Source: Stegostoma tigrinum (taxonomy: Eukaryota). Taken from it: a DNA stretch of 64,000 nucleotides. Under the pieces are notes generated by a model. It saw only the letters and a list, made by a program, of their open reading frames with translations, was not told the origin of the DNA and did no database searches. A program made the position numbers and the translations under genes. Positions 8,169 to 64,000 of the stretch are shown here, piece by piece. Location: contig NC_081366.1 of assembly GCF_030684315.1 (NCBI RefSeq), positions 18,605,410 to 18,669,409 of the forward strand, in the 5' to 3' direction. How positions within the stretch are numbered: position 1 is the stretch's first letter; every line of letters starts with the position of its first letter.

Positions 8169-9283
8169 ACAATGATGCCAATATTTCCTAGGCTATAAAA
8201 GATAACAAGCTTTTTATTTCAAGATTTAAAATAACTAAAGGATTTTAGAACATAGATCGACCAAAAACTGCTTCTTCTGTTGGGGTTTTCTAGGCAGCGT
8301 AATTTTACAATTAGAACTAGGCCATTCAAGAAATAGTGAAGAAAATGAAAGGCACTGGCAGTATCTGACTGGGGTTTGGAAAAGTTACATTCGATCAAAA
8401 TCTTAGCTTTGTTTCTATCTCCGCAGATGCTGCCAGACCTATTGAGTTTCTCCAGCATGAACAGTATTTTGCTTTCATTCAGTTTTGATGCGGGAAAACA
8501 TATTATCACATAATGGAACTCTCTCCCTCAGAAAAAGAGTTTAGAGGTACAATCAATTGAAATCTTCAAAAAGGAGATTGGTAGGTGGAGACATTAAGGG
8601 ATACAAGGTAAATGGATTCGTGATACAGATCAACCATGATTTAGTTGAATGGAACAAGCTGGAGGGATTAAATCATTTAGTGTTGTATCTATCTTTCAAA
8701 TAGCCTACACCTGTAAATTGTTGCACAGACAATGTTTATAAATTCATACTTTATAATCTCAGTTTTTTTGAATAATATTACCACATTGTGAAATTGGAAT
8801 TTATTACTTAGCACATTAATTTTATGAGGTCACCTCTGAGACATGGATTCAAACAAAATCCAATTCAATTCAGACTGAAAGTACTTGCTTGCTGACGCTT
8901 TTAATGGTGTCAAGTGAAGTGTGTTCAGACATTCTCAATTTAAATCTTTAGACTTATCAGTGAGATAACTTTGCTGATGGTAAAAATCGGGTCTGTTTGT
9001 CAGTGAAGTAAATCCCAAATTCCAAAAGGTACATGAATGAAAGCATGAATCTGACTTGCTTAGTTAACACCATCGTCAAAATCTCAGAGGTTTAAATTTT
9101 GCTTCTGCTATACCACAAGAAGATTCCTAATAATAAAAGTAAATCTTTATTGAGGGAGCTAGTGTATTGTCCTCATTTTTCTGGCTTCCATAACTGCAGA
9201 GCATGACAAAATCCTTTTCCTTTTGAGGTGCGAGCCTCACCCTGTATGGATAATTTTTTTGACTAACACCTTTACTCCATAAA

Positions 9284-9503
9284 AGAGGGTATCAAGTTGT
9301 AGAGCTGGATGAACACAGCAGGCCAAGCAGCATCATCGGAGCAGGAAAGCCGATGCTTCAGGCCTAGACCCTTCTTCAGAAAGGGTCTAGGCCAAAAACA
9401 TCAGTTTTCCTGCTCCTCTTATGCTGGTTGGCCTGCTGTGTTCATCCAGCTCTACACCTTGTTATCTCAATTTCTCCAGCATCTGCAGTTCCTACTATCT
9501 CTG
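9284..9503. mobile_element. Fold-back PLE pLTR derivative (older subfamily) with ~18-bp TSD
   Basis: Inverted arms meeting at cccttcttcaga/aagggtctagg (9369-9391); acacctttactccataaa 9266-9283 vs acacctttgttccataaa 9504-9521. Confidence 0.85.
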
Positions 9504-9594
9504 ACACCTTTGTTCCATAAATTTATTTGTGTCTGCTAAAAACTTTTGTGTGTATATGTGTGTTTACTTAAAAAAGTAGTCATTGTTCAATATT

Positions 9595-9715
9595 AAGTCC
9601 CAAGATTGTTGATTTACATCCAATTGCAGAGAGTTGAGTGCATAGTCCAGTCTGACTTCAGTGAGTATTTAGGAAGAATTACCATGTTGAAGGTGCCATT
9701 TGTCTGGGGAAATGC
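9595..9715 (+). mobile_element. Decayed SacSINE1-like fragment
   Basis: Similar to 1100-1220 (agagagttgagtgcatagtccagtctgac...gaaggtgcc). Confidence 0.4.
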
Positions 9716-11000: not shown

Positions 11001-11047
11001 ACCTCTCTCTCTCTCTCTATCTCTCTATCTCTCTCTCTCTCTCTCTA
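11001..11047 (+). repeat. (CT)n microsatellite with ctat interruptions
   Basis: Seen directly. Confidence 0.9.
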
Positions 11048-12401: not shown

Positions 12402-12759
12402 AATATTTATGGGAAGTGAGCATTACTAGCAAGGCCAGTATTTGTCGTCCACCCTTAACTGCCCTTGGCAGGCCATTTCAGAAACATCCACCATACTGTG
12501 GGGTCCAGAGTAACAAATAGGCCAGACTGGTTGGGGATGGCAGATTTTGTTCTCGAAAGGACATTTACTGAAACAGACGTACCTTTTCCTGAAAATCAAT
12601 TTCATAGTTACCATTACAGACACTAGCATTTTTAAAAATTGTAGGTTTATTAATCAGTTTAAACTCTGCCAGATGCCATACAGGGATTTGAATCCATCTA
12701 CCCATAGAGTGGACTTTAAAATTACTTGTCCAGTAATATTGCCACTCAGCCACTGCCTC
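12402..12759 (-). mobile_element. Bipartite tRNA-headed SINE sharing head and tail with the LINE at 52638-55520
   Basis: 12405-12467 aligns with 52650-52712; 12468-12759 aligns with 55222-55519. Confidence 0.7.
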
Positions 12760-15075: not shown

Positions 15076-15096
15076 TTTCTTTAATTCTATTGTCTC

Positions 15097-20274: not shown

Positions 20275-21890
20275 AGCATGATCAGACTCATCAAGGTAGT
20301 TTCACAAAAGAAAAATCCTGTTTGGTAAATTCATTAGAGATTTTTTGAGTATGTAATTAATAGGCCGGTTAAAAGGAGAACATGCTAATCTAACTGTTGG
20401 ATTTCTAAAAGACATTCAAGCAAGTTGGGGCTAATATACTTACATGAATAAAGACTTGTTTTAGATTAGATTAGATTCCTTACAGCGTGGAAACAGGCCC
20501 TTCGGCCCAACAAGTCCACACCGCCCATTGGAGCATCCCACCCAGACCCATCCCCCTATAACACACACACCCCAGAACACTACAGGCAATTTAGCTTGGC
20601 CGAGCCACCTAGCCTGCACATCTTTGGACTGTGGGAAGAAACCGGAGCACCCGGAGCAAACCCACGCAGACACGGGGAGAATGTGCAAACTCTGCACGGA
20701 CTGGAATCGAAACTGAGGCTGGAATCGAACCTGGGTCCTTGGTGCTGTGTGGCGGCGGTGCTAACCACTGAGCCACCATGCCGCCCCTAAATGTTTATGG
20801 GTAAGAAGCAGAGAGTGGGCGTAAGCAAGACATTTTCAAGTTAGTAGGTTATGACTGGTAAAGCACCATCAGGCTGGGGTCTCAGCTAATTACAATCTAC
20901 CTGAACAACGTAGATGAAGAGACAGAGAAAAAATGGTCTACCTTTGTTGTTCATGATATAAAGCTGGATGAAAAGGTAAATTGTGAGGACGATGCAAAGA
21001 TGGAGCAGAATTTCTTCTCTCAGTGGGTTGAAAATTTATGGAATTCTTTACTACAGAGGGACGTTGACGCTGGGTCGACATCAATATATTCACGGTTGAA
21101 ATAGATTTTTAATCAGTAAGGGAATCAAGAGTTATAGGGAAAAGGCTGTAGAGTTGAGTTGAAGATTATCAGATCAGCTGTGATCTCACTGAGGGAGCAG
21201 AGTAGTTGGGTTGAATTGTTTACTTCTGCCCCTACACGGCCTGATTTACAGACACAAAGGGGCTGAAAAGAAAAGAGTGGCTTAAATGAGTAAGCAACAA
21301 GATATTAGATGGAATATTGTATGGGCCAGTGTAAAGATATTAATTTTAATTGAAGGAATAGTGAAGTACAATATTTGCTAAAATATATGAAATATGTAAA
21401 TATCGCTGTAAAGAGACTATTGCTCAGACATGGAATGCAGAAAGTTAGCATGTGCATAAAACAACTAGAAAGACAATTAACATGTTGGACTTACTTGCAA
21501 CGGGATTGGCATGTAAGAATAAAGAAACCTTGCAGGAATGTTCAAATGTTCGGAATATAATGTGCAGTTTTGGCCTCCACATTTAAAGAATGATACAACT
21601 GGATTGGAGGTATTACAGAGAAGTTTACAGGGATTGATCACTGGGATGAGTGTTTTGTCCTATGATGATAGGATGAGTAAATTGGGCCAATAATCTCTGG
21701 AGTTTAGATGAACGAAACATGATCTTACTGACACATAGAAGATGTCCCTACTGGTTTGAATTTGTAGATGCCAACAGAATATTTCTGCTGGTTGCAAAAT
21801 CTAAGATTCAGAGATGTAGTATTAAGATAAGGAACAGATTATTTAGGATTGAGCTGAGAAGAATTTTTGGAATCCTTTAACACAGAATGC
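20275..21890 (+). mobile_element. Decayed CR1 RT fragments, interrupted by a SINE and another CR1 3' end
   Basis: Remnants of GF.K.KSCL.N.LEFFE and LDF.K.F (20295-20425); tgtgcagttttggcctccac (VQFW.P) at 21561. Confidence 0.65.
20461..20787 (-). mobile_element. HE1/V-SINE-like SINE, full length
   Basis: Head ggggcggcatggtggctcagtggttagc; B box ggttcgattcc; (aatct)n tail. Confidence 0.92.
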
Positions 21891-22894: not shown

Positions 22895-23990
22895 AAAAAA
22901 GCAACAGGAGTAGACCAATCATCTTCTGTAGTCAGCTGTGCTGCTCACTTGAATCATGGTTGATTTATACATCAAATCCATTTATCATTTTTAACTCTAT
23001 GTCCTTTGATATCTTCACCTCACAAAATCTACCCATCTCAATCTTGGAAGCCCAAGTAATCCCAGTATCCATAGCCTTTTTCAGGAGAGAGCTTCAGATT
23101 TCTACTATATATTTTGTGTGAAAATGTGCTTACTCGATAGTCTAGCTCCAATTAGAAGATTATGCCCCTTCAATCTCAATTTTGCTACCAGGAGAAATAG
23201 TTTCTCTGCATCTACCCTATTGAATCCTGTTAGCATTTTAAACACGTCTATCACCTTGGATACAAGGTGTTCAGGAAAGATAGTGAAAGTAAGAGAGGAG
23301 AAGGGATGGCAATTTTGATTAAGGAGAATATTACTGTGCTGAAGACAGAGTATGTCCTGGAGGGGTCAAGGACAGAATCTGTCAGGTTAGAGTTAAGAAT
23401 CAATGTAAGTGGCATTATACAACTGAGTGTTTTCTACTGAGCACTGAATAACGTGACAAATAGAGAAGAATTTGCCTGGGAATTACAGCATAGTACAAGA
23501 ACTATACTGCAATGATAATGGGGGATTAATTTGTGCTAATATAGATTGGGATAGGCATTTAAAAATGGAAAAGAGGGAAGAGAGATTCTGAACTTTGCTA
23601 AGGAGACCTTTCTTGAACAATATGGGTGGCATGGTGGCTCAGTGGTTAGCCCTGCTGCCTCACAGCTCCAGGGACCTGGGTTCAATTCCAGCCATGGGCA
23701 TCTGTCTGTGTGGAATTTGCACATTCTCCTTGTGTCTGTGTGGGTTTCCTCCAGGTTTTCCGGTTTCCTGCTGCAGTCCAAATTTGTGCAGGTTAGGTGG
23801 ATTGGCCATGCTAGATAGCCCATAGTATTTAGGGATGTGTTGATTAGGTGGGTTATAAAGGGATGGGTCAGGGTGGGATGCTCTGAGGTTTGGTGTGGAC
23901 TTGTTGGGCTGAAAGGCCAGTTTCCACACTGTAGGGATTTGATGATGAATACATGCCCAGCTCAATGAAGGAGAAGAATTTGCTGGCTCA
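22895..23990. mobile_element. Adjacent CR1 fragments: 3' end on minus (~22895-23245), endonuclease region on plus (~23255-23990)
   Basis: ataatgggggattaat (MGD.N) at 23515; ttcttgaacaatat (FL.QY) split by the SINE. Confidence 0.55.
23624..23947 (+). mobile_element. HE1/V-SINE-like SINE
   Basis: A box tggctcagtgg, B box ggttcaattcc, V-domain, tail ccacactgtagggatt. Confidence 0.92.
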
Positions 23991-24028
23991 AAGTGTGCTT
24001 AGTTGAAAGTAGTCACACCTCTGAACCA

Positions 24029-25376
24029 AGATAATAAAATGTGAGGTTGGATGAACACAGCAGGCCAAGCAGCATCTCAGGAGCACAAAAGCTGACGTTT
24101 TGGGCCTAGACCCTTCATCAGAGAGGGGGATGGGGTGAGAGTTCTGGAATAAATAGGGAGAGGGGGAGGCGGACCGAAGATGGAGAGAAAAGAAGATAGG
24201 TGGAGAGAGTATAGGTGGGGAGGTAGGGAGGGGATAGGTCAGTCCAGGGAAGATGGACAGGTCAAGGAGATAGGATGAGGTTAGTAGGTAGATGGGGGTG
24301 CGGCTTGGGGTGGGAGGAAGGGATGGGTGAGAGGAAGAACAGGTTAGGGAGGCAGAGACAGGTTGGACTGGTTTTGGGATGCAGTGGGTGGAGGGGAAGA
24401 GCTGGGCTGGTTGTGTGGTGCAGTGGGGGGAGGGGACGAACTGGGCTGGTTTAGGGATGCAGTAGGGGAAGGGGAGATTTTGAAACTGGTGAAGTCCACA
24501 TTGATACCATTAGGCTGCAGGGTTCCCAAGCGGAATATGAGTCGCTGTTCCTGCAACCTTCGGGTGGCATCATTGTGGCACTGCAGGAGGCCCATGATGG
24601 ACATGTCATCTAGAGAATGGGAGGGGGAGTGGAAATGGTTTGCGACTGGGAGGTGCAGTTGTTTGATGCGAACTGAGCAGAGGTGTCAGTTCGCAACAAA
24701 CAACTGCACCTCCCAGTCGCAAACCATTTCCACTCCCCCTCCCATTCTTTAGATGACATGTCCATCATGGGCCTCCTGCAGTGCCACAATGATGCCACCC
24801 GTAGGTTGCAGGAACAGCGACTCATATTCCGCTTGGGAACCCTGCAGCCCAATGGTATCAATGTGGACTTCACCAGTTTCAAAATCTCCCCTTCCCCAAC
24901 TGCATCCCTAAGCCAGCCCAGTTTGTCCCCTCCCCCCACTGCACCACACAACCAGCCCAGCTCTTCCCCTCCACCCACTGCATCCCAAAACCAGTCCAAT
25001 CTGTCTCTGCCTCCCTAACCTGTTCTTCCTCTCACCCATTCCTTCCTCCCACCCCAAGCCGCACCCCCATCTACCTACTAACCTCATCCCACCTCCTTGA
25101 CCTGTCCATCTTCCCTGGGCTGACCTATCCCCTCCCTACCTCCCCACCTATACTCTCTCCACCTATCTTCTTTTCTCTCCATCTTCGGTCCGCCTCCCCC
25201 TCTCTCCCTATTTATTCCAGAACCCTCACCCCATCCCCCTCTCGGATGAAGGGTCTAGGCCTGAAACGTCAGCTTTTGTGCTCCTGAGATGCTGCTGGGC
25301 CTGCTGTGTTCATCCAGCCTCACACTTTATTATCTTCGATTCTCCAGCATCTGCAGTTCCTATTATCTCTGATAGT
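24029..25376. mobile_element. 1.35-kb fold-back PLE insertion (two inverted EN C-terminus plus pLTR arms) with 14-bp TSD
   Basis: Arms 24029-24676 and 24686-~25335 are near-perfect inverted copies around a 9-nt spacer; acacctctgaacca at 24015-24028 and 25377-25390. Confidence 0.95.
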
Positions 25377-25674
25377 ACACCTCTGAACCACATGGTCCCA
25401 GGTTCAAATTACACTTGGGGACAAAGGCAAAGCCTTTTGGGTGTCATTCTACAGCAGAGAAACTTAGCAACAGTGACATCACAGAAAAGTCAGGGCTTGC
25501 TGGTAGGGACTGCAAATTACTCCATTTTAAATTAGCCCAGGGAAAGTAAGATCTTAAAGAAACAGGAGAGGAATCTGATTTGTGGCAATGGCGAGGAATT
25601 TCTACTAATTGTCAGTTGACAGTAAACCATGCAAAGTTTAGGTTAATGTCAGTTAAATGTAAGCTTACGTTATG

Positions 25675-25947: not shown

Positions 25948-26040
25948 ATAGTGATAATGGGAACTGCAGATGCTGGAGAATCCAAAATAATAAAATGTGA
26001 GGCTGGATGAACACAGCAGGCCCAGCAGCATCTCAGGAGC
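25948..26040 (-). mobile_element. Solo PLE pLTR 3'-end insertion (long-end type) with 7-bp TSD
   Basis: Matches the reverse complement of 60519-60612; acagtag at 25941-25947 and 26041-26047. Confidence 0.9.
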
Positions 26041-27572
26041 ACAGTAGCCCCAGAGGTCTATACTAATTAGGAATAGGAGCAGGTCGTCCAGTTCCTTGAG
26101 ACTGCTCTGCAACTCAATACAATTATAGCTGATCCATTATCCACTTCCCTTTACTCCTACTCTTGTTACCCTTATTGATCAGGACTCTGTCTATCTTAGC
26201 CTTAAATGATCCACTCACTAACTGGCTTCTCATTCTGGATATTGGTAAGAATCAGCATCTGCGGTTCTCATGGAAAGCCAAGGCCAAAAGAATATCCATT
26301 GGCTGCTGGAGATGCATGCAAAACCTTCACTCCATTGCTTCAGCCACCAGGGTTCAACAGTAACAGTAAGGCAAGTGGGGGGGGGGGGGGGGGGCAGCAA
26401 GGGACCTTGACCTTACTCCAGATGCCCCTTCCTCACAAGGAGCTGAGGGGGTGCCAGCAATACCCAGGCGAAGGAGGAACTGAATGCAGGCCTGCTGGAA
26501 ATCTTGCTTCAGAAAACTCCAGAGGTGAACAGGCCCTCTTCTCCACCTCCAGCTACCACCCTTAATCCTGTGGAAAGTTCATGCTGAGGAGGGTGAACAT
26601 ACATTTGTCAAGACACTCACAGCATGTCTGGGCCATCGAGCATCATATGGTTTGGGATCATCCACCCAAAACTTCAAAGCCAACAATGCCCATTCTAGGA
26701 CAACCTCCCCTGACCCAGCTGCAGAACCTGGGAGTGCAGCCAGATACAGTGTGAGGGGAAGGCGAAAGAAAGTCTCATGTGGGAACTTAGGTGGTCAAGG
26801 TGATACTTCATGGCAAATAGAATATCAAATTTGTAAATACATGTTTACTTTAAATTGTCACCGATCTGCTTGACTGTTATCTTGACTGCAGCTACAAGAA
26901 TGAAGTTAGAAGCAGCACCCATCATTAGAGTCACACAATGTTTGTGCCCTCTCTAAAGGATTGTTGTTCTTAGTACCTACACCAGCATGAAGGTTTATCA
27001 TGTTTGTATAAGGGTGCATCAGATCTTGTGAACCCTTCCAGTGGTTAGAAAGGTTAGCTTTTATTAAATAATAAGAAAAATGAAGAAACAACAAACCAAT
27101 AAGCTACGTTCGCAGTTGGGAGTCAACCAGGAGTTGTTTGTCTTCCCAACGTCAGTACAATTCCATCAATGAATGATGAATTCATCCAACTCTGTTCCAT
27201 TAAATCTGATTCAGAAATAAATCACGTGTGACTTGTTGGGCCAATGCCTCTGCATTCTGTCATGCTGAAAGTGATGTTTCTCCAGATCAACATCCTCATC
27301 TTCCTCCTTGGCAAAATTCTAACATTGCCACAGCTCCTCATCACCCATCAGATCCCCTCGTCCTGCTACCATTAACTCGAGCTTGGCATGCAAGGTTTAT
27401 GTGATAGGCTCTGTCAGTAGTATACTGCATCAAATCCTCACACCGGTGTGAGCATAGGGATACCATATTGGTAAGATTTGTATAATCCTTGATGGCCCCA
27501 GTGGAAATGGTTAATGCATCGTATATACTCTTAGCCTTAGTCAGAGGGCTGTGTGATAAATTCATCTTCGAC

Positions 27573-31660: not shown

Positions 31661-31767
31661 GTGGGAATGAATAAAATAAAGATAGAACTTCACATTCAGT
31701 TTGAACATGCGAAGTGTGGGCCGAAGACATGTTGCATTTTTGTATTAAACTACGAGGATTGATGTCA

Positions 31768-33445
31768 AGCCGAACTCGTCCTCACGATCAACAACTTCTC
31801 TTTCGATTCCTCCCATTCCTACTGACAAACGGGGTGGCCATCAGTACCCGCATGGGCCCAAGCTCTGCCTGCGTCGTTGTAGGTTATGTGGCACAATCCG
31901 TCTTCCGTACCTACGCTGGCCCTAAAGCCCACCTCTTCCCCCGTTACATTGATGACTGTATTGGCACCACCTCATGCTCCCAAGAAGAGCTTGAACAGTT
32001 CATCCATTTCACCAACACCTTCCACCCCAACCTCAAGTTCACCTGGACCATCTCCAACGCATCCCTCACCTTCCTGGGCCTCTCTGTTTCCATCTCAAGC
32101 AACCACCTAGAAAGCAATATCCATTTCAAGCCCACAGACTCCCACAGCTACCTAGAATACACCTCCTCGCACCCAACTTCTTGCAAAAATTCCATCCCTT
32201 ATTCCCAATTCCTTAGACTCCGCCGCATCTGCTCCCAGGATGAGGAATTCCACTCCTGGGCATCTCAGATGCCCTCGCTCTTCAAGGACCACAACTTCAC
32301 CCCCGCAGTGGTCAAGGATGCCCTCGACCGTGCCTCCCGCATTTCCCACAATTCATCTCACACACCCCATCCCCGCAATAACCGCCAAAAGAGAATCCTC
32401 CTTGTCCTCACATACCAGCTCACCAACCTCCGCATCATCCTCCGACACTTCCGTCATCTACAATCCAACCCCACCACCAAAGACATTTTTCCAACCCCAC
32501 ACTTGTCTGCTTTCCGGAGGGACCACCCTCTCCACGATTCCCTTGTCCGCTCCGCACTCCTCTCCAACCCCACCATACCCGGCACTTTCTCCTGTGACCG
32601 CAGGAAGTGCTACACTTGCTCCCACATTTCATTCCTCACCCCCATCCCAGGCCCCAAGATGGCTTTCCACATCAAGCAGATGTTCACCTGCACATCTGCC
32701 AATGTTGTGTACTGCATCTGCTGTACCTGTTGTGGCTTCCTCTATGTCGTGGAAACAAAGCGGAGGCTTGGGGACAGTTTTGCAGAACACCTACGCCTGT
32801 TTCGCAATACACAACTGTACCCCCCAGTCGAGACCCATTTCAACTCCCCCTCCCATTCCTTAGACGACATGTCCATCCTGGGCCTCCTGCTGTGACACAA
32901 TGATGCCACCCGAAGGTTGCAGGAACAGCAACTCATATTCCGCTTGAGAACCCTGCAGCCCAATGGCATCAATGTGGATTTCACAAGCTTCAAAATCTCC
33001 TCTTGCCCCCACTGCATTCCAAAACCAGCCCAGCTCGTCCCCTAACCTGTTCTTCCTCTCACCTATCCCCTCCTCCCACCTCAAGCCACACCCCCATTTC
33101 CTACCTTCTAATCTCATCCCACCCCCTTGACCAGTCCATCCTCCCTGGACTGACCTATTCCATCTCTACCTCCCCACCCATACTCACCTCTCCTGGCTCC
33201 ATCCTCGCCCCTTTAACTTATCTATCTCCTCTCCACCTATCTTCTCCTCTCTCCATCTTCGACCCACTTCCCCCTCTCTCCCTATTTATTTCAGAACCCC
33301 CTCCCCATCCCCCTTTTCTGATGAAGGGTCTAGGCCTGAAATGTCAGCTTTTGTGCTCCTGAGATGCTGCTTGGCCTGCTGTGTTCATCCAGCTTCACAA
33401 TTTGTTATCTTGGATCCTCCAGCGTCTGCAGTTCCCATTATCTCT
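31768..33445 (+). mobile_element. 5'-truncated Neptune-type Penelope-like element
   Basis: RT motifs GVAI.TRMGPS and RYIDD; linker CDRRKCYTC; GIY-YIG VVYCI.CT.CGFLYV.ET.RRLGD.FAEH; pLTR with decayed hammerhead at 33318-33345; ends cccattatctct. Confidence 0.95.
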
Positions 33446-34435
33446 CAAACACAAAGGGTCTGGTTTGGATCAAATGCCATGGTAAGCAACGGCACAACTG
33501 CTGAGATCCAGGCTGCTGGCTGCATAGCAACACTGAAGGGCAGGACAATAAACAGCTTAGTAGCATTTTAGGGGAGGATTGTGGATGTGAAGCCATGGAG
33601 ATTGGAGTATCGAGAATTCGGAGTCTAGGCCTGGGAGCCACACTGTAACCCCTATGCATGATCCCAGTCATCCCAAGATTGGACAGATCAAGGACCCCAG
33701 TCCTGACTCTGCCAACTCAGCAAGCAGATCTCTGCATTTTAGCTGACTGAAAGCCTGCCAGCATGAAATGCCATTAATCAAAGCCATGAGTGAAAAGGCC
33801 CTTAAGCAGCCATTAATCATTCGGTGTTTACTGGCCTTTGAAATACAATCTAAAAACTTTCCAACACATTGAATTTCTTCAACAAGTTCTCAATAAAATC
33901 CATTGATGCCCATCAGGTACGTCTGGAAGCTCTCATTATCTTGGTATCTTGTCTGGGGATCTGAGAGTTTCCTTCATATTCAATCTTGATAGCCTACAAT
34001 TTGCTGCACAGCACACTTTCCTTTGGAACTAATTTAAAACCTAACCTGTTCTGAGACAGTCATACCAACCCTCGCCCTAATCCTAAATCAAACTGCAATA
34101 ATAAAGCATCAACTTAGTGCAATTCTGTTTACAATTTGATGATGTGATTCATATGTTTGCGATATACTGATGGAACAAGATGTGTGTAGTAGTCCTATAT
34201 TGATATAATGTTATTTTCTAAATGTAAGTGCAAACTTCTCCAAGTTTAGATGCATTGGAATGCTTCAGAAACTAACTGAGATGTCCAGGATGAAGAGATG
34301 CTTAGAAAAATTGGCCATAAATTCTATTTTTCAAAGGATTTAGGCTAATAGATTTACAAGCATTGGAACAATGTTCCTGTTTCCCAAAGTTAAAGCAAGA
34401 TTTCTCCTTTTTTTTATCCATCATTAATAACAAGT

Positions 34436-37768: not shown

Positions 37769-38065
37769 GATTAGATTAGATTCCCTACAGTGTGGAAACG
37801 GGCCCTTTGGCCCAACAAGTCCATACCACCCCTTGGACCATCCCACTCAATCCCATTCCCCATAAGCCACACACCCCTGAACACGACGGGCAATTTAGCA
37901 TAGCCGATCCACCTAGCCTGCACATCTTTGGGCTGTGGGAGGAAACCGGAGCACCCGAAGGAAACCCACGCATACACGGGGAGAATGTGCAAACTCCTCA
38001 CAGATAGTCACCCAAGGCTGGAATCGAACCCGGGTTCCTGGCGCTGTGAGGCTGCAGTGCTAACC
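37769..38065 (-). mobile_element. HE1/V-SINE-like SINE, slightly 5'-truncated
   Basis: Same body and (aatct)n tail as 20461-20787. Confidence 0.92.
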
Positions 38066-38298: not shown

Positions 38299-38944
38299 GA
38301 GATAACATAGTGTGGAGCTGGAGGAGATAATGGGAACTGCAGATGCTGGAGAATCCGAGATACCAAAGTGTGGGGCTAGATGAACATAGTAGGCCCAGCA
38401 GCATCTTAGGAGCACAAAAGCTGATGTTTCAGGCCTAGACCCTTCATCAGAGAGGGTGATGGGGAGAGGGTTCTGAAATAAATAGGGAGAGAGGGGGAAG
38501 CAGACCGAAGATGGATAGAGGAGAAGATAAGTGGAGAGGAGACAGACAAGTTAAAGAGGAGGATGGGGGAGGACAGACAGGTCAATGGGGTGGGATGAGG
38601 TTAGTAGGTAGGAAATGGGGGTGCAGCTTGAGGTGGGAGGAGTGGGTGAGTGAGAGGAAGAACAGGTTCGGGAGGTGGGCGAGCTGGGCTGGTTTTGGGA
38701 TGCAGCACAGGGAGGGGAGATTTTGAAGTTGGAGGAACATAGCAAGCCAGGCAGCATCAGAGGTGCAGGAAAGTTGAAGTTTCAGGTTGGGACCGTTCTT
38801 CAGAAAGAACCGTTTCTAAAGAAGGGTCCCAACCTGAAACATTAACTTTCCTGCACTGTTGATGTTGCCTAGCCTGCTGTGTTTCTCCAGCTCCATACTG
38901 TGTTATCTCTGACTCCAGCGTCGGCAGTTTTTACTATCTTTGAA
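38299..38944. mobile_element. Older fold-back pLTR element containing a nested younger PLE pLTR
   Basis: Outer arms 38299-38325 plus 38737-38805 vs 38813-38944; degenerate TSD gtatatcataat/gtgtatcattat. Confidence 0.8.
38326..38726 (-). mobile_element. Nested PLE pLTR (young family)
   Basis: Reverse complement of 32988-33442-like sequence; agctggagga 38316-38325 and agttggagga 38727-38736. Confidence 0.85.
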
Positions 38945-42449: not shown

Positions 42450-42570
42450 AAAGAACTGTTGGAAATCTAAAACAAAAACAGAAGTTGCTGGAGAAACTCA
42501 GCAGGCCTGGCAGTATCTGAGTAGAGGAAGCAGACTTAACGTTTCAAGTCCAATGACCATTTGTCAGAAC
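42450..42570 (-). mobile_element. Solo pLTR end of the 15097-15605 PLE family
   Basis: Minus strand gttctgacaaatggtcattggacttgaaacgttaagtctg...cagatactgccaggcctgctgagtttctccagc. Confidence 0.75.
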
Positions 42571-43284: not shown

Positions 43285-43785
43285 CAAATAGAAACAGAAA
43301 ATGCTTGAAAAAGCCAACAGGTTAGACAACATCTGTGGATGGAAAAATGTTAATGTTCCAGATCAATGGCCTTTCATCAGAACTTAAACAACTCTGTTTC
43401 TATCTTCTCAGACTTGGCCTGAGCATTATAAAATTAGGATGAGGAGCAGGAGTAGGCAATTCAACTTGTTGAACTTACTCCACTATTTGATACGATCATG
43501 GCTGATCCCACCTTGACCTTGATTCCAATTTCCTGCCCACTCCCCATAACACATTCAACATATTACTGATTAAAAATATGTCAGTCTCTTCCTTATTTTA
43601 CTCAGCTCCAGGTATTCACCGCACTCTTGGGCAATGAATTCCACATATTTATGACTCTTTAAGAGGCATAGCTTCTCCTCATCTGTTTTAAATCTGTTCA
43701 CCCTTACTCTAAAGCTCTGAGCTGCTGCATATTTCCAGCATTTTCCACTTATATTTCAGATGTCCAGCACCAACAGTATTTTATT
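43285..43785. mobile_element. Old fold-back pLTR element split by a CR1 3' fragment (~43425-43715)
   Basis: Left arm ends cctttcatcagaact (43384); right arm aactctgtttct... resumes ctgctgcatatttccagcattttc at 43722. Confidence 0.55.
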
Positions 43786-44634
43786 TGTCTACATGTTTCG
43801 ATATTGCCTGAAGTATTGATTCAAAGCTGCTCACTCTTTTGAATTTTTTCACTTGAGATCTCTGTTTTTTGCAACTCTTCACAACATTCTTTTTTGCTTT
43901 CTGTTGCTGAAAATTCAAAGAAAGCACTTATTTGAAATAAGGTGCAGGAGAAATGTGAGAAATAGTCTATGATTAGTATAGGTTAGGAGGAACTTGGGAG
44001 ACACTGTGGTCCTATGATTCTCAAATAATTTTAAAACTAAGGTTTTGCTTGAGTCATGTCTGTGCCTGACCAATAGAGGTTTATCATTCTGGAAAGTTAA
44101 CACTGCATTATTATTAATTATCATTTGGTTATGCAGCGAAGTTTAAAAAAATAGAACTGCTGAGAAAAAGAAACATTTTTTCAAAGATAACTGTCAGTTG
44201 ACATTAACTTGTGCATTCTCCTTAAGAATGTCTCTATCAGTCAGATTCCGTTTGAATCAACCCAGCACGTGCCTGTCATACAGCATATCTGTTGCTTCCC
44301 TGTAAGACCATAAGAAATAGAAACAAGAGTTGGACGTTTAGCCACTCAAGCCTGCTCCACTATTGAAATGAATCATTACTGAACCGACCTTTGCACTTAA
44401 GCCTTGATTCACCTCCCAATCAAGATTCTGTTTCAGCTTTAAATATACACAAAAATTCTGCGTCCTCAGGTCTCCATGGCAAGGAATTCTTTAAATTGGT
44501 ACCACTTTATTCTGAGACTATGCCCTCTGGTCCTATACTGTCCCATGAGGGAAGCCATCATCTCATCATTTACCCTGTCAACCTCCTTTTGAACCCTATA
44601 TGTTTTAATGAGATCACCTCTCACTCTTCTAAAT

Positions 44635-44687
44635 CCCAGATAACAAAGTGTGGGGCTGGATGAACACAGCAGGCCAAGCAGCAATCT
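44635..44687 (-). mobile_element. PLE pLTR short-end fragment fused to a SINE tail
   Basis: agataacaaagtgtggggctggatgaacacagcaggccaagcagca directly abuts (agatt)n. Confidence 0.85.
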
Positions 44688-47237: not shown

Positions 47238-47395
47238 TGAAAGAACAGCAGATGCTGTAAATCAGCAACAAAAGCAAAGTTTCTGCAAAAGTGCAACAAG
47301 CCTGGCAGCATCTGTGAAGGAAGAAAAACAGAGTTAATAGAGTCACCATACCCAAAATGTTAACTCTGTTTTTACCTTGACAGCTGCTGCCAAAC
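47238..47395. mobile_element. Old fold-back pLTR element of the 15097-15605 family
   Basis: ggcagcatctgtgaagg...aaaacagagttaa vs ttaactctgtttt.accttgacagctgctgcc. Confidence 0.7.
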
Positions 47396-49530: not shown

Positions 49531-51014
49531 GGCAAGGCTGAGAATAATTAGCTTGTATGAGACTTTTACATTTTTGTTAACCAATCATGGTTAAAACCTA
49601 CCGGGCTGAACTCTCCCCGTCATTTCACTCTTGCTTCTTATCCCACATTTCTAAGAAATAATAATACAGGTACAGTTTGCAACGTTTATCAAAACACTCG
49701 TCTGCAAAAGAGCTGCCTCAACAATCTCTCAATGAGTTAGGAAATGTGAAAGAATCTTCTGCAGCAATATGATGAGCACCTGCCGAATGTTTCAGAGATT
49801 TAACTTGCTTATAACTTGAAATAACAGCTGCTATATTTACTTTTCATTGCGGGCAAAGTATTGTATGTATAAAACCATAAATTCTGAATGACAGGCTGTA
49901 TTTATTTATATGAAGGAATCACATAATATCCAAAGTTTTGTCGCAAATTCATGTCATGATTTACAACGGCCCATCATTTCCTTGATAATTTTCACGTGTC
50001 AGTTCTCTCTCCTTCTGCTGTGTAGGCTTTGATTGCAAACTGACACAACATGAACCAGTGCACTTAATGTTTTGTCATTCAAATGGCCATGATTCAGGCA
50101 ATTCTGATATAAGAGGCTAACTAACTAACTACAAAACAGATATCATCCTGTAAATTACTGACCATGTACTTTAGGAAGAGGGCACATAATAGCAATTTGG
50201 AATGGTGACTTGGACAGGTTTTTTTTAATTAATGAGCACTAATCAAGCACTCCGAATGCAGACCCACCTTTTCTGATCGTCAAAGGCTCTGCTACACACA
50301 GAGAAAAACTTGCTGAGATATTAATAATTACTGGTGAAGCCAATATTATTGTTGCAGTATTCAATAGAAGAACAACAAGCTAATATTGTCCCTAGGCACA
50401 CAGAAAAAATCCTTTCTAGCATGGTATGAACCCTGCTGCGCTTTAAGTAATTTATTTAAACTATCAAGAAAAGCTTTCCTCCAATGCATTATGTCACTGC
50501 ATAATTCCATTAAAATCTAAAGCTGTTTTGCTTTTTGTGCTACATTAATAAAATTAGTTAAGCGAATATTTAATTTTCTGGGAAGACATAGCTTAAAGGA
50601 TTATACTTAATCAAGACACAAGAATTTGAGCATCTTAAAATTTAAATGAATAGCGAGTGTTTATTGCAAGAAGGAAGTAAAACCACTTATATAAATAAAA
50701 ATTAATCCTATTTAGCTTCTGGTTTATTTTTCTCCTACATCAAATAATGAAATGTAATTAAAAATCATTTAGAATGCTCAACGGTTTCCTTATAAACATT
50801 GATAAGTAGGCAACATTTCTTCTTGCCAATCCAGATAGTTGCTCCTTTTGTCAAATACGTTTCACATCCACACAAGCTCACAGCCATTTCTGATGGTTGT
50901 AGACAAGATGAGAGTAAAATCTAGTGTGCAGAGTGAGCAAGTGGAGGACACAGCATTGTGGCCATGGAGAGAAGTAGGGAACTAAAGTAATTAAACAGCT
51001 TGTGATTATATTAG

Positions 51015-51161
51015 ATAATAAAGTGTGAAGCTGGATGAACACAGCAGGCCAAGCAGCATCTCAGGTGCTCCTGAGATGCTGCTTGGCCTGCTGTGTTCAT
51101 CCAACTTCACACTTTATTATCTTGGATTCTCCAGCATCTGCAGTTCCCATTATCTCTTATC
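51015..51161. mobile_element. 147-bp fold-back pLTR element lacking the hammerhead, 14-bp TSD
   Basis: Arms 51015-51065 and 51070-51120; tgtgattatattag at 51001-51014 and 51162-51175. Confidence 0.95.
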
Positions 51162-51239
51162 TGTGATTATATTAGTATTGGTTTCAGTAGTCAACTGTGA
51201 GGAGAAATGTCATTGTTCTCTGAACAGAACTAACGACTA

Positions 51240-55520: not shown

Positions 55521-55659
55521 ACCTTCATACAGGTAAACATGAACAGGCCGTTGCCTCAACAGACTTTAGATTCCAGAAACCACCATAATGTGCACAAACC
55601 TCCAAGACTAACCCAACAACAAAGTCTAATTCTTGCCAATTGCAGATCCTCAATTTTAT

Positions 55660-55900: not shown

Positions 55901-56666
55901 GCCATACCTCAGTCACATATATGGGCGGTTCAATACATGTGTGAGTTGAGGCATACCAATTTTCATTATGCAAACCCCACCTATTCTTTGCCTAAGACAT
56001 GGAAAATATCATGATCTGAGTTCTCCATGCCCTCAATAAACTACCTCTCAATAGACATCGGCCTTGAGGAAGTGAGTTCCAGAGTTTCTGGATAACATGG
56101 ATCGATAGACCAAGAAAGTGCCTAAAGTGGACTTTATATCTTCCATGCTATTGAGGTGTCATCCTATTAACATTGCAAGCCGAGGTCAACAGGAAGTAGA
56201 AGAGCTGTGGAAACCCAGCATGGCAACTCTAAGTGTAAGTCAATTGGAATTTGAACACAGTCCACATCTATCAATTGTTCATTTGATGATTCATACATGA
56301 CACAAGTCAAATATGCTCCAAAGTATAGTGCAGTGTTGCCCATGAGACTCCATAAGTTGAAGATGAATCTCCTGGAGAGCTGCTGCAAATAACACATGGA
56401 AACAAAATTACAGGGGCATGTTTATTCAATTTCTTTGAGTGACACAACTATTTGAAATGGGAAAAAGGCTGTTTTACTGATTGGAGAACTTGAAGACAGG
56501 AAATCATATGGTGAAATCTCCCAGATGGCATTTACCTGGAATTTGTAACATGTGCATTTTATTGTGATGCATAAAACTATTTCCGGATACACAATGATAC
56601 GCTGTCAGGGCAGGTGGAACTTGAATCCAGACTCCCTGGCCCAGAAGTGGGAATGCTGCCTCTGTG

Positions 56667-56856
56667 AGGTAGTAAGAACGGCTGATGCTGGAGTCAAAGA
56701 TAACACAGTGTGGAGTTGGAGGAACACAGCAGGCCAGGCAGTATCAGAGGAGCAGGAAAGGTGATGTTTGGGTTGGGACCCTTTTTCAGAAATGCCAGCT
56801 TTTCTGTCCCTCTGATGCTGCCTGGCCTGCTGTGTTCCTCCTGCTCCACGCTGTAT
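56667..56856. mobile_element. Fold-back pLTR element (older subfamily), 14-bp TSD
   Basis: Inverted arms; atgctgcctctgtg at 56653-56666 and 56857-56870. Confidence 0.9.
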
Positions 56857-57254
56857 ATGCTGCCTCTGTGCCTTTTTAAAAAAAAATGGTTGAATTCAAT
56901 TGCTATTAGTTGCCCTGGTGGGATTTGAACACTTGTCTCAGAGAATTAGCCTGGGTCATGACACTGTCAGCCCAGTTACATCACCACTATGCCACAATTT
57001 TCGTCCAAATTGTAACCTGTGCATGGTGGCTTCACGAGAAGCATTGTGTCTGGAAAGATCCCCATCAAATGCTGCAGTACTGGATTTCCAGCACAAGAGT
57101 CCCTCAGTGAGCTACAGGAAGTGCAGTTCTTCCAGTGGCAGAAAGCTGGTACTGCGTGGTTCAACAAATGACATAGCTCCACAGTTTTACATTGTTACAT
57201 TGCTTGAACCAAGTTTCTCTATTCTGGCCAGAAAGATTAACCTTGTCATTTTAA

Positions 57255-58200: not shown

Positions 58201-58306
58201 AAAAGAAAGAATTTGCATTTATATAATTCCTTTTACAACCTCAGGGTATTCCAATGTGCTTTATAGCCAATTAAGTACCTTTGAAATGTAGTCACTCTTG
58301 TAATAT
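58201..58306 (-). mobile_element. SacSINE1-like SINE 3' end
   Basis: Minus strand gtgactacatttcaaaggtacttaattggctataaagc...gaggttgtaaaagg..ttatataaatgcaaattctttctttt. Confidence 0.75.
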
Positions 58307-60481
58307 ACTATAAATGAAACTTGCTAAATTGCTCGTAAAATAACTTGTAATTCCAAGTTAATAAATTGCCTCCTTCCTTAAATTGACTTGTTCTGTGAAT
58401 TAAAAAAAAACAGCTGTGATATTGGTTAAATGCAATCATAGAAATCCTGAATCCAAGTCTGAAAACTGTATCTGACTTCAAACATTAGAATTAGACCAAC
58501 ATTTTGCAGTCAGCATTGGGGTTGAATCTGCAGCATACATGAGTTGATATCTAGCTGACCAACATAACTACGGTAGAAAGTTATGATTTATGGTATTGAG
58601 TTTGCCTCCAGCATAAAATAAACTGATTCACCTGAACAAGCTGAATTCAGGGAATGTAGTCTTGTGAAATTCAGCAGGTTGGATAGTGAGCCTTTTGGCA
58701 GTTCTTAATTTGAGTCTTCTTGCTACAGACTGAATCTGCCTTAGCCTAGGCCATTTTGGGAAAATTGCAGGGACAAATGGTCTCAGAATTACATGCAGTT
58801 GTGTGTTACATGGGATTGGGTTCAGAGATATTCCACAAAGTACTTTAGTTTGGCTGCTCAGTTTATTTTTCAAATATATTGTAGGGTCAGGTGAGAAGAA
58901 CTGTCCCAACTTGCCTTTTTGAGAAACTGCAGGAACTTTCAGCATTCACTGATAAAAGGCCATTTAGTCCCCTGCAGAGTGTCACAAAGCCCTGACTGTG
59001 CTCTTAGTTCACTGCCTTCGATGGGGAGGTTCTGACTACTTTGCTTTCTACTGCAATTTACTTTGACTTTTGGAGCACTCCAAAGGTGCATTATTTACAA
59101 TACAGCAAAGCACTTTCCCTTGCTTGATTTTGAATTAATTGGAGCAGCAAACCTGAAGTTTAGAACTCCTTAATTAGGCTTCTAGTGGATAATACCACTG
59201 AATCAAAATATTATACTCTTAGTGATGGATTCAAGAAATATTCATTCCAAAATAAAAAAAAGAAATTTGCTTTTACTCATTTATTATTATTGAATCTTCT
59301 CCACTTGAATTTATTCCTCCTTTTAAACAAAATTTCATTCTCCAGTACAGCCTAGTCTTATTCTCAAAATATTAGGTCCCTGAAGACTTATCACTTTAAT
59401 CCAATGTTTTAACCAGGGATATATCCCACTTTTGGGAAAAGGGACCCAGGTTTTAGCCCAAGTTAAAACACAGGTTATTGGTCGTAAGATTAGAATGGAC
59501 AAAGATTTTAAAATACTAAATTACTTCCAAACCCAGCCAACAGAGACATACAACGCATCATCCTCTGACACTTCCGCCATCTACAATCTGACCCCACCAC
59601 CCAAGACATTTTTCCATCCCCACCCCTGTCTGCTTTCCGGAGAGACCACTCTCTCCGTGACTCCCTTGTTCGCTCCTCACTGCCCTCCAACCCCACCACA
59701 CCCGGCACCTTCCCCTGCAACCGCAGGAAATGCTACACTTGCCCCCACACCTCCTCCCTCACCCCTATCCCAGGCCCCAAGATGACTTTCCACATTAAGC
59801 AGAGGTTCACCTGCACATCTGCCAATGTGGTATACTGCATCCATTGTACCTGGTGTGGCTTCCTCTACATTGGGGAAACCAAGTGGAGGCTTGCGGACCA
59901 CTTTGCAGAACACCTCCGCTCGGTTCGCAATAAACAACTGCACCTCCCAGTCGCAAACCATTTCCACTCCCCCTCCCATTCTTTAAATGACATGTCCATC
60001 ATGGGCTCCTGCAGTGCCACAATGATGCCACCCGAAGGTTGCAGGAACAGCAACTCATATTCCGCTTGGGAACCCTGCAGCCCAATGGTATCAATGTGGA
60101 CTTCACCAGCTTCAAAATCTCCCCTTCCCCTACCGCATTCCAAAACCAGCCCAGATCGTCCCCTCCCCCCACTGCACCACGCAACCAGCCCAGCTCTTCC
60201 CCTCCACCCACTGCATCCCAAAACCAGTCCAACCTGTCTCTGCCTCCCTAACCGGTTCTTCCTCTCACCCATCTCTTCCTCCCACCCCAAGCCACACCTC
60301 CATCTCCTACCTACTAACCTCATCCCACCTCCTTGACCTGTCCGTCTTCCCTGGACTGACCTATCCCCTCCCTACCTCCGCACCTATACTCTCCTCTCCA
60401 CCTATCTTCTTTTCTCTCCATCTTCGGTCTGCCTCCCCCTCTCTCCCTATTTGTTCCAGAACCCTCACCCCATCCCCCTCT

Positions 60482-60509
60482 CTGATGAAGGGTCTAGGCC
60501 CGAAACGTC
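60482..60509 (+). ncRNA. Minimal type I hammerhead ribozyme core, intact
   Basis: CTGATGA-A-GGGTCTAGGCCC-GAAA-CGTC; predicted cut after C60509; palindromic ACGT in place of stem III, as known for PLE hammerheads; stem I is weak (2 bp visible). Confidence 0.75.
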
Positions 60510-62217
60510 AGCTTTTGTGCTCCTGAGATGCTGCTTGGCCTGCTGTGTTCATCCAGCCTCACATTTCATTATCTTGGATTCTCCAGCATCTGCAGTTCCT
60601 ATTATCACTGATACAATTTTAACCTCACTGCGAAGCCTCTTCCAGGGATACCTAACCTGAAGAAGTTACCCTCCTCCCTCCGGACCAACCTCAGGGAATC
60701 TCTCTCTCATTGCAACTCTCTTGTAATCTCTTCGGCCTTGAAACTGCTCGACCATGTCCTGAAGCAAACCAGGTACCACGGCCACATCACCTTCCTCAGC
60801 ACCTGCCTACAGAACCGGATCATCCCCAATGGACTACAGTCTACATTTCAGCCTTCCCAATTTGGCACCAACCGTGACCACCTCTACACCCAGAATATTC
60901 AGACCCTTCAGAAGCGTTTCTCCCTGCGAGCCCTGAAACAGACACTCGCAGCCATGCGCCGGCACCTCCACACACTGCAATCCAGACTGCCCCAGCTCAG
61001 AGCCTCCCTCTCCCAGACCTGCAAAGGACCCCTGCTGTTTTTTATCCTCCGCAGGATCCACAGACTGATCACCCAGTTTCACTCAGCTTTACTGGACACC
61101 AAAAATCGTAAGTACAACAAACTCACTGGCCCCTGCCACCCACAAGAGGATTCCTGCGCCTCCCAAATCCCGAGTCTGTCCCTGCCCCTCCCCGACCATG
61201 CACCCGCCGCCATTGACCATGAGGACACAGCCGGAGACCCCACCGATGACGTCACATCCGCCTCCCCCGGCCACACCACTTCCGGGACCACTGCTGCAGT
61301 CACTACCTCCACTTCCAGGTACAACACCTCACACACCACCCTCACCGCAGCTGCTGCCGCCCACCCCGATACTCCAACCGCCGACGCAACCCCGCCCACA
61401 GCCGAAGCCGACGGAACCCCGCCCATGGCCGACAACCTCATCGCTCCGCCCACAACCTCCACAGCCAGCAACCCCAGAGAAGACAGCCACACTGAACCCT
61501 GCCGCATCTTCACCATCCCCCCAGACCTCTCACTGACTGAGGACGAACGGTCAGTCCTTAGTAAGGGGCTCACCTTTGCCCCCCATAACCACACATCAAT
61601 GAATACCAGTCACGTTTGGACATAGAACGGTTTTTCCGCCGCCTTCACCTCCACGCCTACTTTTTCAACCGGGAGCCTAACTGTCCCTCCACTGACCCCT
61701 TCACCCACTTCCAACACAAGTCCTCCTCCTGGACACCACCCCCAGGCCTCCTACCTTCCCTCGACCTCTTCATCTCTAACTGCCATCGAGACATTAACCG
61801 CCTCAACCTCTCCACCCCTCTCACCCACTCCAACCTCTCCCCCGCAGAACGGGCAGCCCTCCGCTCCCTCCGCTCCAACCCCAACCTCACCATCAAACCC
61901 GCAGACAAGGGTGGCGCAGTGGTAGTATGGCGCACTGACCTCTACATCGCCGAGGCCAAGCGCCAACTCTCCGACACCACCTCCTACCGCCCCCTCGATC
62001 ATGACCCCACACACGAGCACCAAACCATCATCTCCAACACCATTCATGACCTCATCACCTCAGGGGACCTCCCACCCACAACCTCCAACCTCATTGGTCC
62101 CCAACACCGCACGGCCCATTTCTATCTCCTTCCCAAAATCCACAAACCTGCCTGCCCTGGTTGACCCATCATCTCAGCCTGCTCCTGCACCACCGAACTC
62201 ATCTCCACCTAACAGGA

Positions 62218-62429
62218 GATAATGGGAACTGCAGATGCTGGAGATTCCAAGATAATAAAATGTGAGGCTGGATGAACACAGCAGGCCAAGCAGCATCTCA
62301 GGAGCACAAAAGCTGACGTTTCGGGCCTAGACCCTTCATCTGATGAAGGGTCTAGGCCCGAAACGTCAGCTTTTGTGCTCCTGAGATGCTGCTTGGCCTG
62401 CTGTGTTCATCCAGCCTCACATTTTATTA
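62218..62429. mobile_element. Very young fold-back pLTR element inserted in the PLE RT, 14-bp TSD
   Basis: Perfect 89-bp arms 62252-62340 and 62342-62430; tccacctaacagga at 62204-62217 and 62430-62443. Confidence 0.97.
62340..62367 (+). ncRNA. Intact hammerhead core at the apex of the fold-back
   Basis: ctgatgaagggtctaggcccgaaacgtc, identical to 60482-60509. Confidence 0.65.
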
Positions 62430-64000
62430 TCCACCTAACAGGACTCCATTTTCTCCCCTTTGGTCCAGGAACTCCCTACCTATGTCAGTGACACCACCGA
62501 TGCCCTCCAACTCCTCCAGGGCTTCCAATTCTCTGGCCCCCAACACCTCATTTTCACCATGGACGTCCAGTCCCTATACACCTGTATTCCGCATGCAGAT
62601 GGCCTCAAGGCCCTCCGCTTTTTTCTGTCCCGCAGGCCCGACCAGACCCCTCAACCGACACCCTCATCCGCCTAGCCGAACTCGTCCTCACCCTCAACAA
62701 CTTCACTTTCAATTCCTCCCACTTCCTACAGACTAAGGGGGTGGCCATGGGCACCCGCATGGGCCCCAGCTATGCCTGGCTCTTTGTAGGTTACATGGAA
62801 CAGTCCCTCTTCCGCACCTACACAGGCCCCAAACACCACCTCTTCCTCCGTTACATTGATGACTGTATTGGCGCCGCCTCTTGCTCCCCAGAGGAGCTTG
62901 AACAGTTCATCCACTTCACCAACACCTTCCACCCCAACCTTCAGTTCACCTGGGCCATCTCCAGCACATCCCTCACCTTCCTGGACCTCTCAGTCTCCAT
63001 CTCAGGCAACCAGCTTGTAACTGATGTCCATTTCAAGCCCACCGACTCCCATAGCTACCTAGAATACACCTCCTCCCACCCACCCTCCTGCAAAAATTCC
63101 ATCACCTATACCCAATTCCTCCACCTCTGCCGCATCTGCTTCTACGATGAGGCATTCCACTCCCGCACATCCCAGATGTCCAAGTTCTTCAAGGACCGCA
63201 ACTTTCCCCCCACAGTGATCGAGAATGCCCTTGACTGCGCCTCCCGCATTTCCCGCAACACATCCCTCACACCCCGCCCCCGCCACAACCGCCCAAAGAG
63301 GATCCCCCTCGTTCTCACACACCACCCGACCAACCTCCGGATACAACACATCATCCTCCGACACTTCCGCCATCTACAATCCAACACCACCACCCGAGAC
63401 ATTTTTCCATCCCCACCCCTGTCTGCTTTCCGGAGAGACCACTCTCTCCGTGACTCCCTTGTTCGCTCCACACTGCCCTCCAACCCCACCACACCCGGCA
63501 CCTTCCCCTGCAACCGCAGGAAATGCTACAATTGCCCCCACACCTCCTCCCTCACCCCTATCGCAGGCCCCAAGATGACTTTCCACATTAAGCAGAGGTT
63601 CACCTGCACATCTGCCAATGTGGTATACTGCATCCACTGTACCCGCTGTGGCTTCCTCTACATTGGGGAAACCAAGCGGAGGCTTGGGGACCGCTTTGCA
63701 GAACACCTCCGCTTGGTTCACAATAAACAACTGCACCTCCCAGTCGCAAATCATTTCCACTCCCTCTCCGATTCTTTAGATGACATGTCCATCATGGGCC
63801 TCCTGTAGTGCCACAATGATGCCACCCGAAGGTTGCAGGAACAGCAACTCATATTCCGCTTGGGAACCCTGCAGCCCAATGGTATCAATTTGGACTTCAC
63901 CAGCTTCAAAATCTCTCCTGCCCCACCGCATTCCAAAACCAGCCCATTTCGTCCCCGCCCCCCACCGCACCACACAACCAGCCCAGCTCTTCCCCTCCAC

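Follow-up and report, generated by a model that had tools for sequence, protein, structure and literature searches.

A 64,000-nucleotide stretch of the Stegostoma tigrinum genome (NCBI RefSeq assembly GCF_030684315.1, contig NC_081366.1, positions 18,605,410 to 18,669,409, here also G000:C15:18605410-18669409; referred to as the window) carries six inverted-repeat insertions built from the 3' end of a Penelope-like element (PLE). How are such fold-backs made, and do they constitute a mobile family? They are a known kind of PLE insertion product, namely short dead by-products and not a new mobile family, and were very probably assembled from two complementary DNAs (cDNAs) that were target-primed at a staggered cut of ~14 nt and joined by microhomology. 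What is new here is that the 5' ends of the arms pile up at two sites, one near −134 and the other at the predicted cut site of a hammerhead ribozyme.

Positions within the element are counted from window position 60612, which is taken as zero and marks where the first of the two copies in the window's partial-tandem PLE has its 3' end; negative numbers lie upstream. The arm that carries the tail is termed long and the tail-less arm short. Two samples of the 3.2-Gb genome were used: a census of 560 kb, drawn as 56 pieces of 10 kb each from arbitrarily chosen round coordinates, and a set of 87 young fold-backs pooled from all loci and chosen largely via junction searches. Labels such as L009, L036 or L085 denote sampled genome stretches outside the window.

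Anatomy of the Fold-backs in the Window

Self-comparison of the window recovered all six inverted structures (E1 to E6), each composed of opposed PLE 3' ends. Two 5'-truncated copies of this end lie head to head between target-site duplications (TSDs) of ~14 bp, as follows.

9284..9503: E1, older fold-back; short arm on the left (minus strand), long tail-bearing arm on the right (plus strand)
9266-9283 and 9504-9521: flanks of E1, degenerate 18-bp direct repeat, 16/18 matching
24029..25376: E2, long fold-back; arms −35..−702 and −692..+1, junction near 24686
24015-24028 and 25377-25390: TSD of E2, exact, 14 bp
38299..38944: E3, composite; the older fold-back is 38299-38323 plus ~38724-38944
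38324-~38730: nested younger single arm in E3 (minus strand), interrupting the older fold-back
38287 and 38945: flanks of E3, repeat with 10/12 matching
51015..51161: E4, young fold-back; arms −38..−93 and −95..0
51001-51014 and 51162-51175: TSD of E4, exact, 14 bp
56667..56856: E5, older fold-back; long arm on the left
56653-56666 and 56857-56870: TSD of E5, exact, 14 bp
62218..62429: E6, young fold-back inside the PLE open reading frame (ORF); arms −6..−131 and −131..−39
62204-62217 and 62430-62443: TSD of E6, exact, 14 bp

A preliminary description of this DNA had reported six insertions of opposed PLE 3' ends. Five are as it described them, and E3 proved to be an older fold-back plus a nested younger arm. 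The four exact 14-bp TSDs that it listed (E2, E4, E5 and E6) and the two degenerate ones (E1 and E3) were recovered. Exact repeats of at least 11 bp were found by chance in 3 of 300 random site pairs, and of at least 13 bp in none. Given that the 14-bp target of E6 is single-copy in all three of the other PLE copies compared that span the site, the duplication arose on insertion.

Two further, older fold-backs had been assigned to another family.

47238..47395: O2, older fold-back of a related PLE-end family; inverted match 47303-47392, 72% identity
43285..43785: O1, old PLE-end arm, doubtful member; partial inverted partner of 41 bp, 73% identity

The assignment holds for O2 and is weak for O1, and no TSD was found in the flanks of either. 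In O1, ~330 bp unrelated to the arms separate the inverted matches; this interior (window 43400-43715) may represent a later insertion or captured DNA. The older PLE-end family (window 15475, 42454-42568 and 47238-47395) is ~65% like the young one, is common in random loci and has a 5-bp stem II and a GUU-type cut site. Lone PLE-end arms with no detected inverted partner lie at window 36-127, 561-650, 25950-26043 and 44632-44683, and just to the right of the window a further long fold-back (L132:1627-3305) has arms reaching −720 and −994 and a 9-bp exact repeat.

Abundance, TSD Length and Pairing of Arms

The census contained 120 units, of which 38 were fold-backs and 82 single arms; extrapolation gives ~2x10^5 fold-backs genome-wide. 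An exact 23-mer from a young arm has 157,251 matches in the genome. Most fold-backs are ORF-less and 100-280 bp in size, with arm lengths ranging from ~30 to more than 1000 bp. A peak in TSD length, which the preliminary description had named as a test, is present in the 87 young fold-backs: the TSD is at least 11 bp in 72 and 13-16 bp in 61, with a mode of 14 and a range of 11-21 bp. TSD base composition is 64% A+T with no clear motif, a figure that was not used further given that the handling of orientation was rough.

All 72 young fold-backs with a clear TSD pair one long arm with one short arm, and none has two short arms. The outer ends of long arms fall mostly at −1 to −6 (about −4; spread −10..+11) and those of short arms mostly at −37 to −41 (spread −62..−34). 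A 30-40-bp tail is thus present at one end in 72/72; in the window's PLE, the segment between the two arm starts is as follows.

60571..60612 (plus strand): tail between the two arm starts

This pairing matches the two reverse transcriptase (RT) start sites demonstrated in vitro for an anole PLE (PMC11167929).

Recurrent Centre Junctions Are Hot Spots

The centres of the fold-backs, which had been described as all different, do differ from one another inside the window. Genome-wide, however, the 39-nt centre junction of E6 occurs 735 times and that of E4 169 times, so that unique centres fail as an argument against a miniature inverted-repeat transposable element (MITE). Identical junctions recurring 735, 169 and, for a third junction discussed below, 531 times, together with inverted arms and TSDs, are what amplification of a few master hairpins by a DNA transposon might leave. 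The arms themselves make this extremely unlikely. The E6 junction has an unpaired central base that lies with the tail to its left in 18 cases, to its right in 12 and with the tail absent in one (n = 31; 30 of the 735 loci plus E6), and the asymmetry of the E4 junction is likewise independent of tail side (left 5, right 6; n = 11; 10 of the 169 loci plus E4). The E6 junction spans at least three subfamilies, whose variants are mirrored in both arms. Across the 87 young elements, 80 non-consensus variants are common to both arms of one element, against a mean of 24.6 and a maximum of 37 when partners were permuted 1000 times, and arm-to-arm mismatch is 2.8% within elements as compared with 5.6% for permuted partners. 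A single master would fix both orientation and subfamily. Nor do the elements have the precise termini and fixed TSD of a MITE: outer ends scatter over 10-25 bp, TSD length fluctuates around 14 bp, and arms extend from tens of base pairs to more than 1 kb.

Elements that share a junction are therefore independent events, and the centres are hot spots. The proposal that many copies with an identical centre would identify a MITE is rejected on the basis of the orientation mix, subfamily spread and arm kinship: junctions are shared hundreds of times by elements that are nonetheless independent. The mini-elements are truncated insertion products and do not form a family that propagates itself.

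It was also considered whether the commonest junctions stem from transcribed fold-backs re-mobilised as non-autonomous PLE passengers. A transcribed fold-back has sense start signals on either strand, PLEs are able to mobilise pseudo-long terminal repeat (pLTR)-bounded sequence in trans according to part of PMC3846280, and some junctions are very frequent. Such passengers would be expected to yield both-short products from the inner start, of which there are 0/72, and a fixed centre-to-tail orientation for each master, as opposed to the ratios of 18:12 and 5:6 observed; the E6 junction by itself would presumably call for six masters or more. Re-mobilisation is accordingly judged very improbable as the origin of these junctions.

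Probable Formation from Two cDNAs

The extent of the arms bears directly on how the second arm arises. The ends could be classified in 30 of the 38 census fold-backs. With a margin of 10 nt, it is the short arm that extends further 5' in 10 of them and the long arm in 3, and the two are level in 17; examples are −41 for the long arm against −119 for the short, and −824 against −1052. Since the short arm often reaches further, neither arm is generally copied from the other, and nesting of one arm in the other does not hold. Three long arms consist almost wholly of the tail, stopping at −37, −41 and −51, which would fit both primers being on one RNA with the outer cDNA blocked by the inner hybrid. 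In L085 and L009, arms begin in ORF sequence beyond 0 and end at −131, and their template therefore spanned the pLTR-ORF junction.

Palindromic centres and arm kinship could also follow from a single priming event and snap-back, in which the first cDNA, or else an antisense template, serves to make the second arm; an antisense template has been proposed for rotifer PLEs, and self-priming was proposed in PMC3846280. A copied arm must, however, be nested in the first, whereas the tail-less arm extends further 5' in 10/30; the tail cannot be copied from a tail-less arm; and both outer ends lie at fixed start sites beside a TSD. Snap-back is thus an unlikely origin, and as a general route it was rejected, the arms of these 30 census fold-backs not being nested.

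The proposal of two priming events at a ~14-nt stagger, made in the preliminary description, is supported by the TSD mode of 14, the 72/72 long-short pairing, the variants shared between arms and the lack of nesting, and is very probably correct. The GIY-YIG endonuclease domain would presumably make the stagger; the nick geometry, the order of priming and the nature of the two stops are here deduced from the products. In the proposed sequence of steps, each element would be a one-off insertion by the PLE RT-endonuclease. The target would be nicked on both strands ~14 nt apart, as the TSD implies, and each 3'-OH would prime its own cDNA on PLE RNA from one source, whether one molecule or two. 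One cDNA would begin near −3, at the outer start, and so include the tail; the other would begin near −38, at the inner start. Both would extend toward the 5' end of the RNA, stopping most commonly at −131..−135, the proposed transcript start in the pLTR, and more rarely at −102, the proposed hammerhead cut, or at random points. Annealing of the cDNA 3' ends through 0-5 nt of microhomology, followed by fill-in and ligation, would give the order TSD, short arm, long arm, TSD. The start signals are also present in a 5' copy that lies ~130 nt from where the RNA begins, and priming there would yield the short elements.

Several observations weigh against this mechanism. The bias toward short arms reaching further is not significant (p = 0.09), and arm kinship could partly stem from later hairpin repair. 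Single arms outnumber fold-backs in the census, and double priming is therefore not obligatory, or many partners are too short or too old to detect. An exact 13-17-bp TSD is kept by only 16/34 non-edge census fold-backs. Finally, most members of the 87-element set were picked by searching for junctions.

Arm Ends near −134

The commoner of the two stops is located just upstream of the hammerhead core.

60477..60481 (−135..−131, plus strand): major 5' stop of arms

Among 87 census arms, 23 end at −128..−136, corresponding to 2.6 per position as compared with 0.05 just upstream, and 18,666 genome matches were obtained with a filtered pattern representing such ends. Tandem jumps end here too, with successive segments ending at −131..−134 in L036:5242-5501 and L009:1297-1632; one L009 segment starts 72 bp into the ORF region. 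The site resembles a TCT-type pyrimidine initiator. This stop is likely to be the 5' end of the RNA in the pLTR, judging from the distribution of ends, and Penelope is transcribed from its pLTR according to part of PMC2377424. A G precedes 14 of 28 non-symmetric ends at the stop (scored by eye), which is at most a weak hint of an extra base derived from the cap; the strong G bias in the filtered class cannot be told apart from the effect of a partner arm that is itself rich in G. A pyrimidine tract ending in AG at window 60430-60458, ~25 bp upstream of the stop, resembles a splice acceptor; Penelope has a 5' intron.

Arm Ends at the Predicted Hammerhead Cut Site

Immediately downstream of this stop lies a predicted minimal ribozyme.

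60482..60509 (plus strand): minimal hammerhead with core, bulged base, 4-bp stem II, GAAA, CG and GUC, features as described in part of PMC4209133; predicted cut between 60509 and 60510 (−103/−102)

A descriptor of this hammerhead gave 45 hits in 560 kb and 0-1 in each of five shuffles. The type I minimal features, namely the core boxes, a bulged base after position 9, G10.1-C11.1 and a palindromic 15.2-16.2, are present, with CG or its CpG-decay products in 42/45 hits. Stem II and stem I sequences differ between hammerhead families. Against the 4-5 bp expected of a stable helix I, this helix is 2 bp in 27/45 hits and 4-5 bp in older families; a 2-bp helix I has been reported for the Drosophila virilis element in a section of PMC4209133. 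An Rfam search at E<=1 returned no hammerhead hit. A separate hammerhead family, with a stem II of 4-6 bp and a different stem I, was seen at L040:35, L050:2508, L050:8322 (minus strand) and L056:5270.

The junction predicted from the ribozyme, based on the first four bases after the cut (AGCT), occurs symmetrically 531 times in the genome. Control palindromes of equal length (4 bp) gave 20 junctions at 5 nt upstream, where the palindrome contains a CpG, and 14 at 28 nt downstream, where it is partly subfamily-restricted. Ends between −103 and −98 were scored by eye in the first 100 of 5192 pattern matches: 31 were symmetric at −102, 19 were other ends at −102, 19 lay at −103, 3 at −101, 6 at −100, 6 at −99 and 7 at −98, and 9 were indel background. 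Non-symmetric ends thus peak at −102 (p = 1e-4). Four upstream positions total 1136 matches, some of which are −102 ends through microhomology. It is estimated that ~2-3% of arms end at the cut site and that over a third of these have a partner ending there too, well above independence. Fold-backs in L151/L152 and L159/L160 (G000:C1 near 4383900 and 6335900) contain head-to-tail 100-bp units running from −102/−103 to −6, as if the RT, on reaching the cut end, had jumped to the outer start again.

Whether ribozyme cleavage in vivo causes this peak is an evenly balanced question on sequence grounds. The peak may instead reflect pausing of RT at an RNA structure or preferred annealing at the AGCT palindrome, an explanation given somewhat less than an even chance. 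Several points speak for it and against cleavage. The predicted hairpin closes at −101, albeit with no unusual stability of the folded arm (z = 1.22, not significant); a blunt −100/−100 join would explain the symmetric junction just as well; 6 of the 19 non-symmetric −102 ends share one 7-mer and are readable as −100, and at least 2 of the 19 are background (L138 and L160); stem I is only 2 bp; and an anole element lacks RNA-seq reads at the cut site in the data given in part of PMC11167929. Pausing or annealing does not readily account for the 20 and 14 junctions at palindromes of equal length as against 531, for the −102 peak of non-symmetric ends, for the total of 1136 matches at the four upstream positions, or for tandem units that begin at −102/−103. 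If cleavage is indeed the cause, ~2-3% of arms would derive from cut RNA. In most such cases both arms of an element would be affected, which a single RNA serving both arms, or a ribozyme acting as a dimer, would lead one to expect. The literature searches turned up no report of insertion ends at a hammerhead cut site, though PMC5785218, PMC5850863 and the supplements of PMC11167929 and PMC4209133 could contain some.

The Source Element and Other Features

The PLE in the window from which the coordinates are taken is accompanied by an older relative.

59550..64000 (plus strand): partial-tandem PLE; 5'-truncated copy up to 60612, then a whole but broken copy
31705..33451 (plus strand): older 5'-truncated PLE copy of the same lineage, 80-85% identical

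The whole copy ends ~400 bp beyond the window edge, and a 13-bp TSD (left copy 59537-59549) encloses both copies, such that 59550-60612 precedes the whole copy and the partial tandem forms a pLTR, as in endonuclease-containing (EN+) PLEs. The pieces of the broken ORF include DKG and YIDD motifs, a Cys-x4-Cys-x2-Cys linker and a GIY-YIG domain. The EN+ order of RT followed by a C-terminal GIY-YIG domain in a single ORF is visible from the motifs and from weak Pfam matches to RVT_1 (E = 0.0011) and GIY-YIG (E = 0.011), neither of which reaches its curated cut-off; no Pfam domain match was obtained in the ORF at E<=0.001, and a PDB sequence search with the PLE gave no match. The Cys-rich linker suggests that the source may belong to the Neptune clade, for which a zinc-finger-like linker plus RT phylogeny are the defining characters in a section of PMC8557442.

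E5 scores against a microRNA (miRNA) model in Rfam; such matches were rejected as real miRNAs, being generic hairpins below threshold. A dispersed ~310-bp repeat, 77-87% alike among copies at window 20462-20787, 23634-23937 and 37769-38065, is unrelated to the fold-backs and is, we would guess, a short interspersed element.

Comparison with Known Systems

PLEs with inverted pLTR segments and minimal hammerheads had been described before, as the preliminary description correctly stated (parts of PMC3846280, PMC8557442, PMC2377424 and PMC4209133). Insertions of EN+ PLEs include an inverted pLTR copy plus a 30-40-bp tail (PMC3846280, PMC8557442, PMC2377424), and the present elements share with them a head-to-head 5'-truncated inverted copy, a one-sided tail, a TSD around the unit, partial tandems and palindromic junctions. 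They differ from the insertions described in those passages in that most lack an ORF and measure 100-280 bp, in their great abundance (38 in 560 kb), and in a TSD mode of 14, where the rotifer examples have 8-10 bp; the passages mention neither hot spots for junctions nor a strict one-long, one-short rule.

With the anole Poseidon element PAc, for which both strands are nicked and extended in vitro, with two internal RT starts bounding the tail, and whose protein is predicted to be a dimer, the present system also shares a hammerhead near the pLTR-ORF junction (main passages of PMC11167929). In that work, ribozyme cleavage was unnecessary for insertion in vitro; its passages do not describe fold-back products or TSD length, both of which are described here, and PAc is a Poseidon element, whereas the linker of the present protein suggests Neptune.

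Dispersed minimal hammerheads, including opposed pairs 100-700 bp apart, are reported in part of PMC4209133; they are of the same ribozyme type and opposed arrangement as those found here, with no TSD or formation mechanism given in that part. Non-LTR retrozymes (sections of PMC7761336; bioRxiv 10.64898/2026.07.22.740005) are likewise short, non-coding, PLE-pLTR-related and hammerhead-bearing. By contrast, they are head-to-tail arrays with a hammerhead in each unit, and the preprint, in the parts read, treats tandem units and not fold-backs. The elements described here are head to head; where 100-bp tandem units do occur, in L151 and L159, they begin past the ribozyme core and lack it.

The elements resemble MITEs in being short, with inverted arms, a TSD and high copy number, and differ in lacking precise termini and a single master and in having a retroelement as their source. 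In L1 twin priming, as proposed here, RT is primed from both target strands, and joining of the two cDNAs through microhomology leaves an inversion flanked by a TSD. L1 arms come from non-overlapping RNA segments, whereas both arms here copy the same segment.

Implications

The origin of inverted and tandem PLE structures and the cutting of hammerheads in vivo are stated as open questions in parts of PMC8557442, PMC7761336 and PMC11167929, and the in vivo activity of minimal hammerheads is called unknown in passages of PMC4209133 and PMC7761336. For repeat annotation, shared junctions are no proof of a master copy, and elements of this kind may be filed as MITEs or miRNA-like hairpins. From the ends of the fold-backs, the two RT starts, the distance between the nicks and the 5' ends of the templates can be read to the base, and these open questions about PLEs thereby become testable by sequence counts and simple RNA assays. 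It is for the statistics of these ends that the fold-backs are chiefly of value, and especially for the peak at the hammerhead cut site, which is possibly a genomic record of a ribozyme working in living cells. More tentatively, the fold-backs may constitute a genome-wide record of PLE intermediates in which the hammerhead cuts germline RNA and the commoner ~130-nt cDNA resembles a strong-stop product; if transferred to the 3' pLTR, this cDNA could restore pLTRs and give rise to partial tandems.

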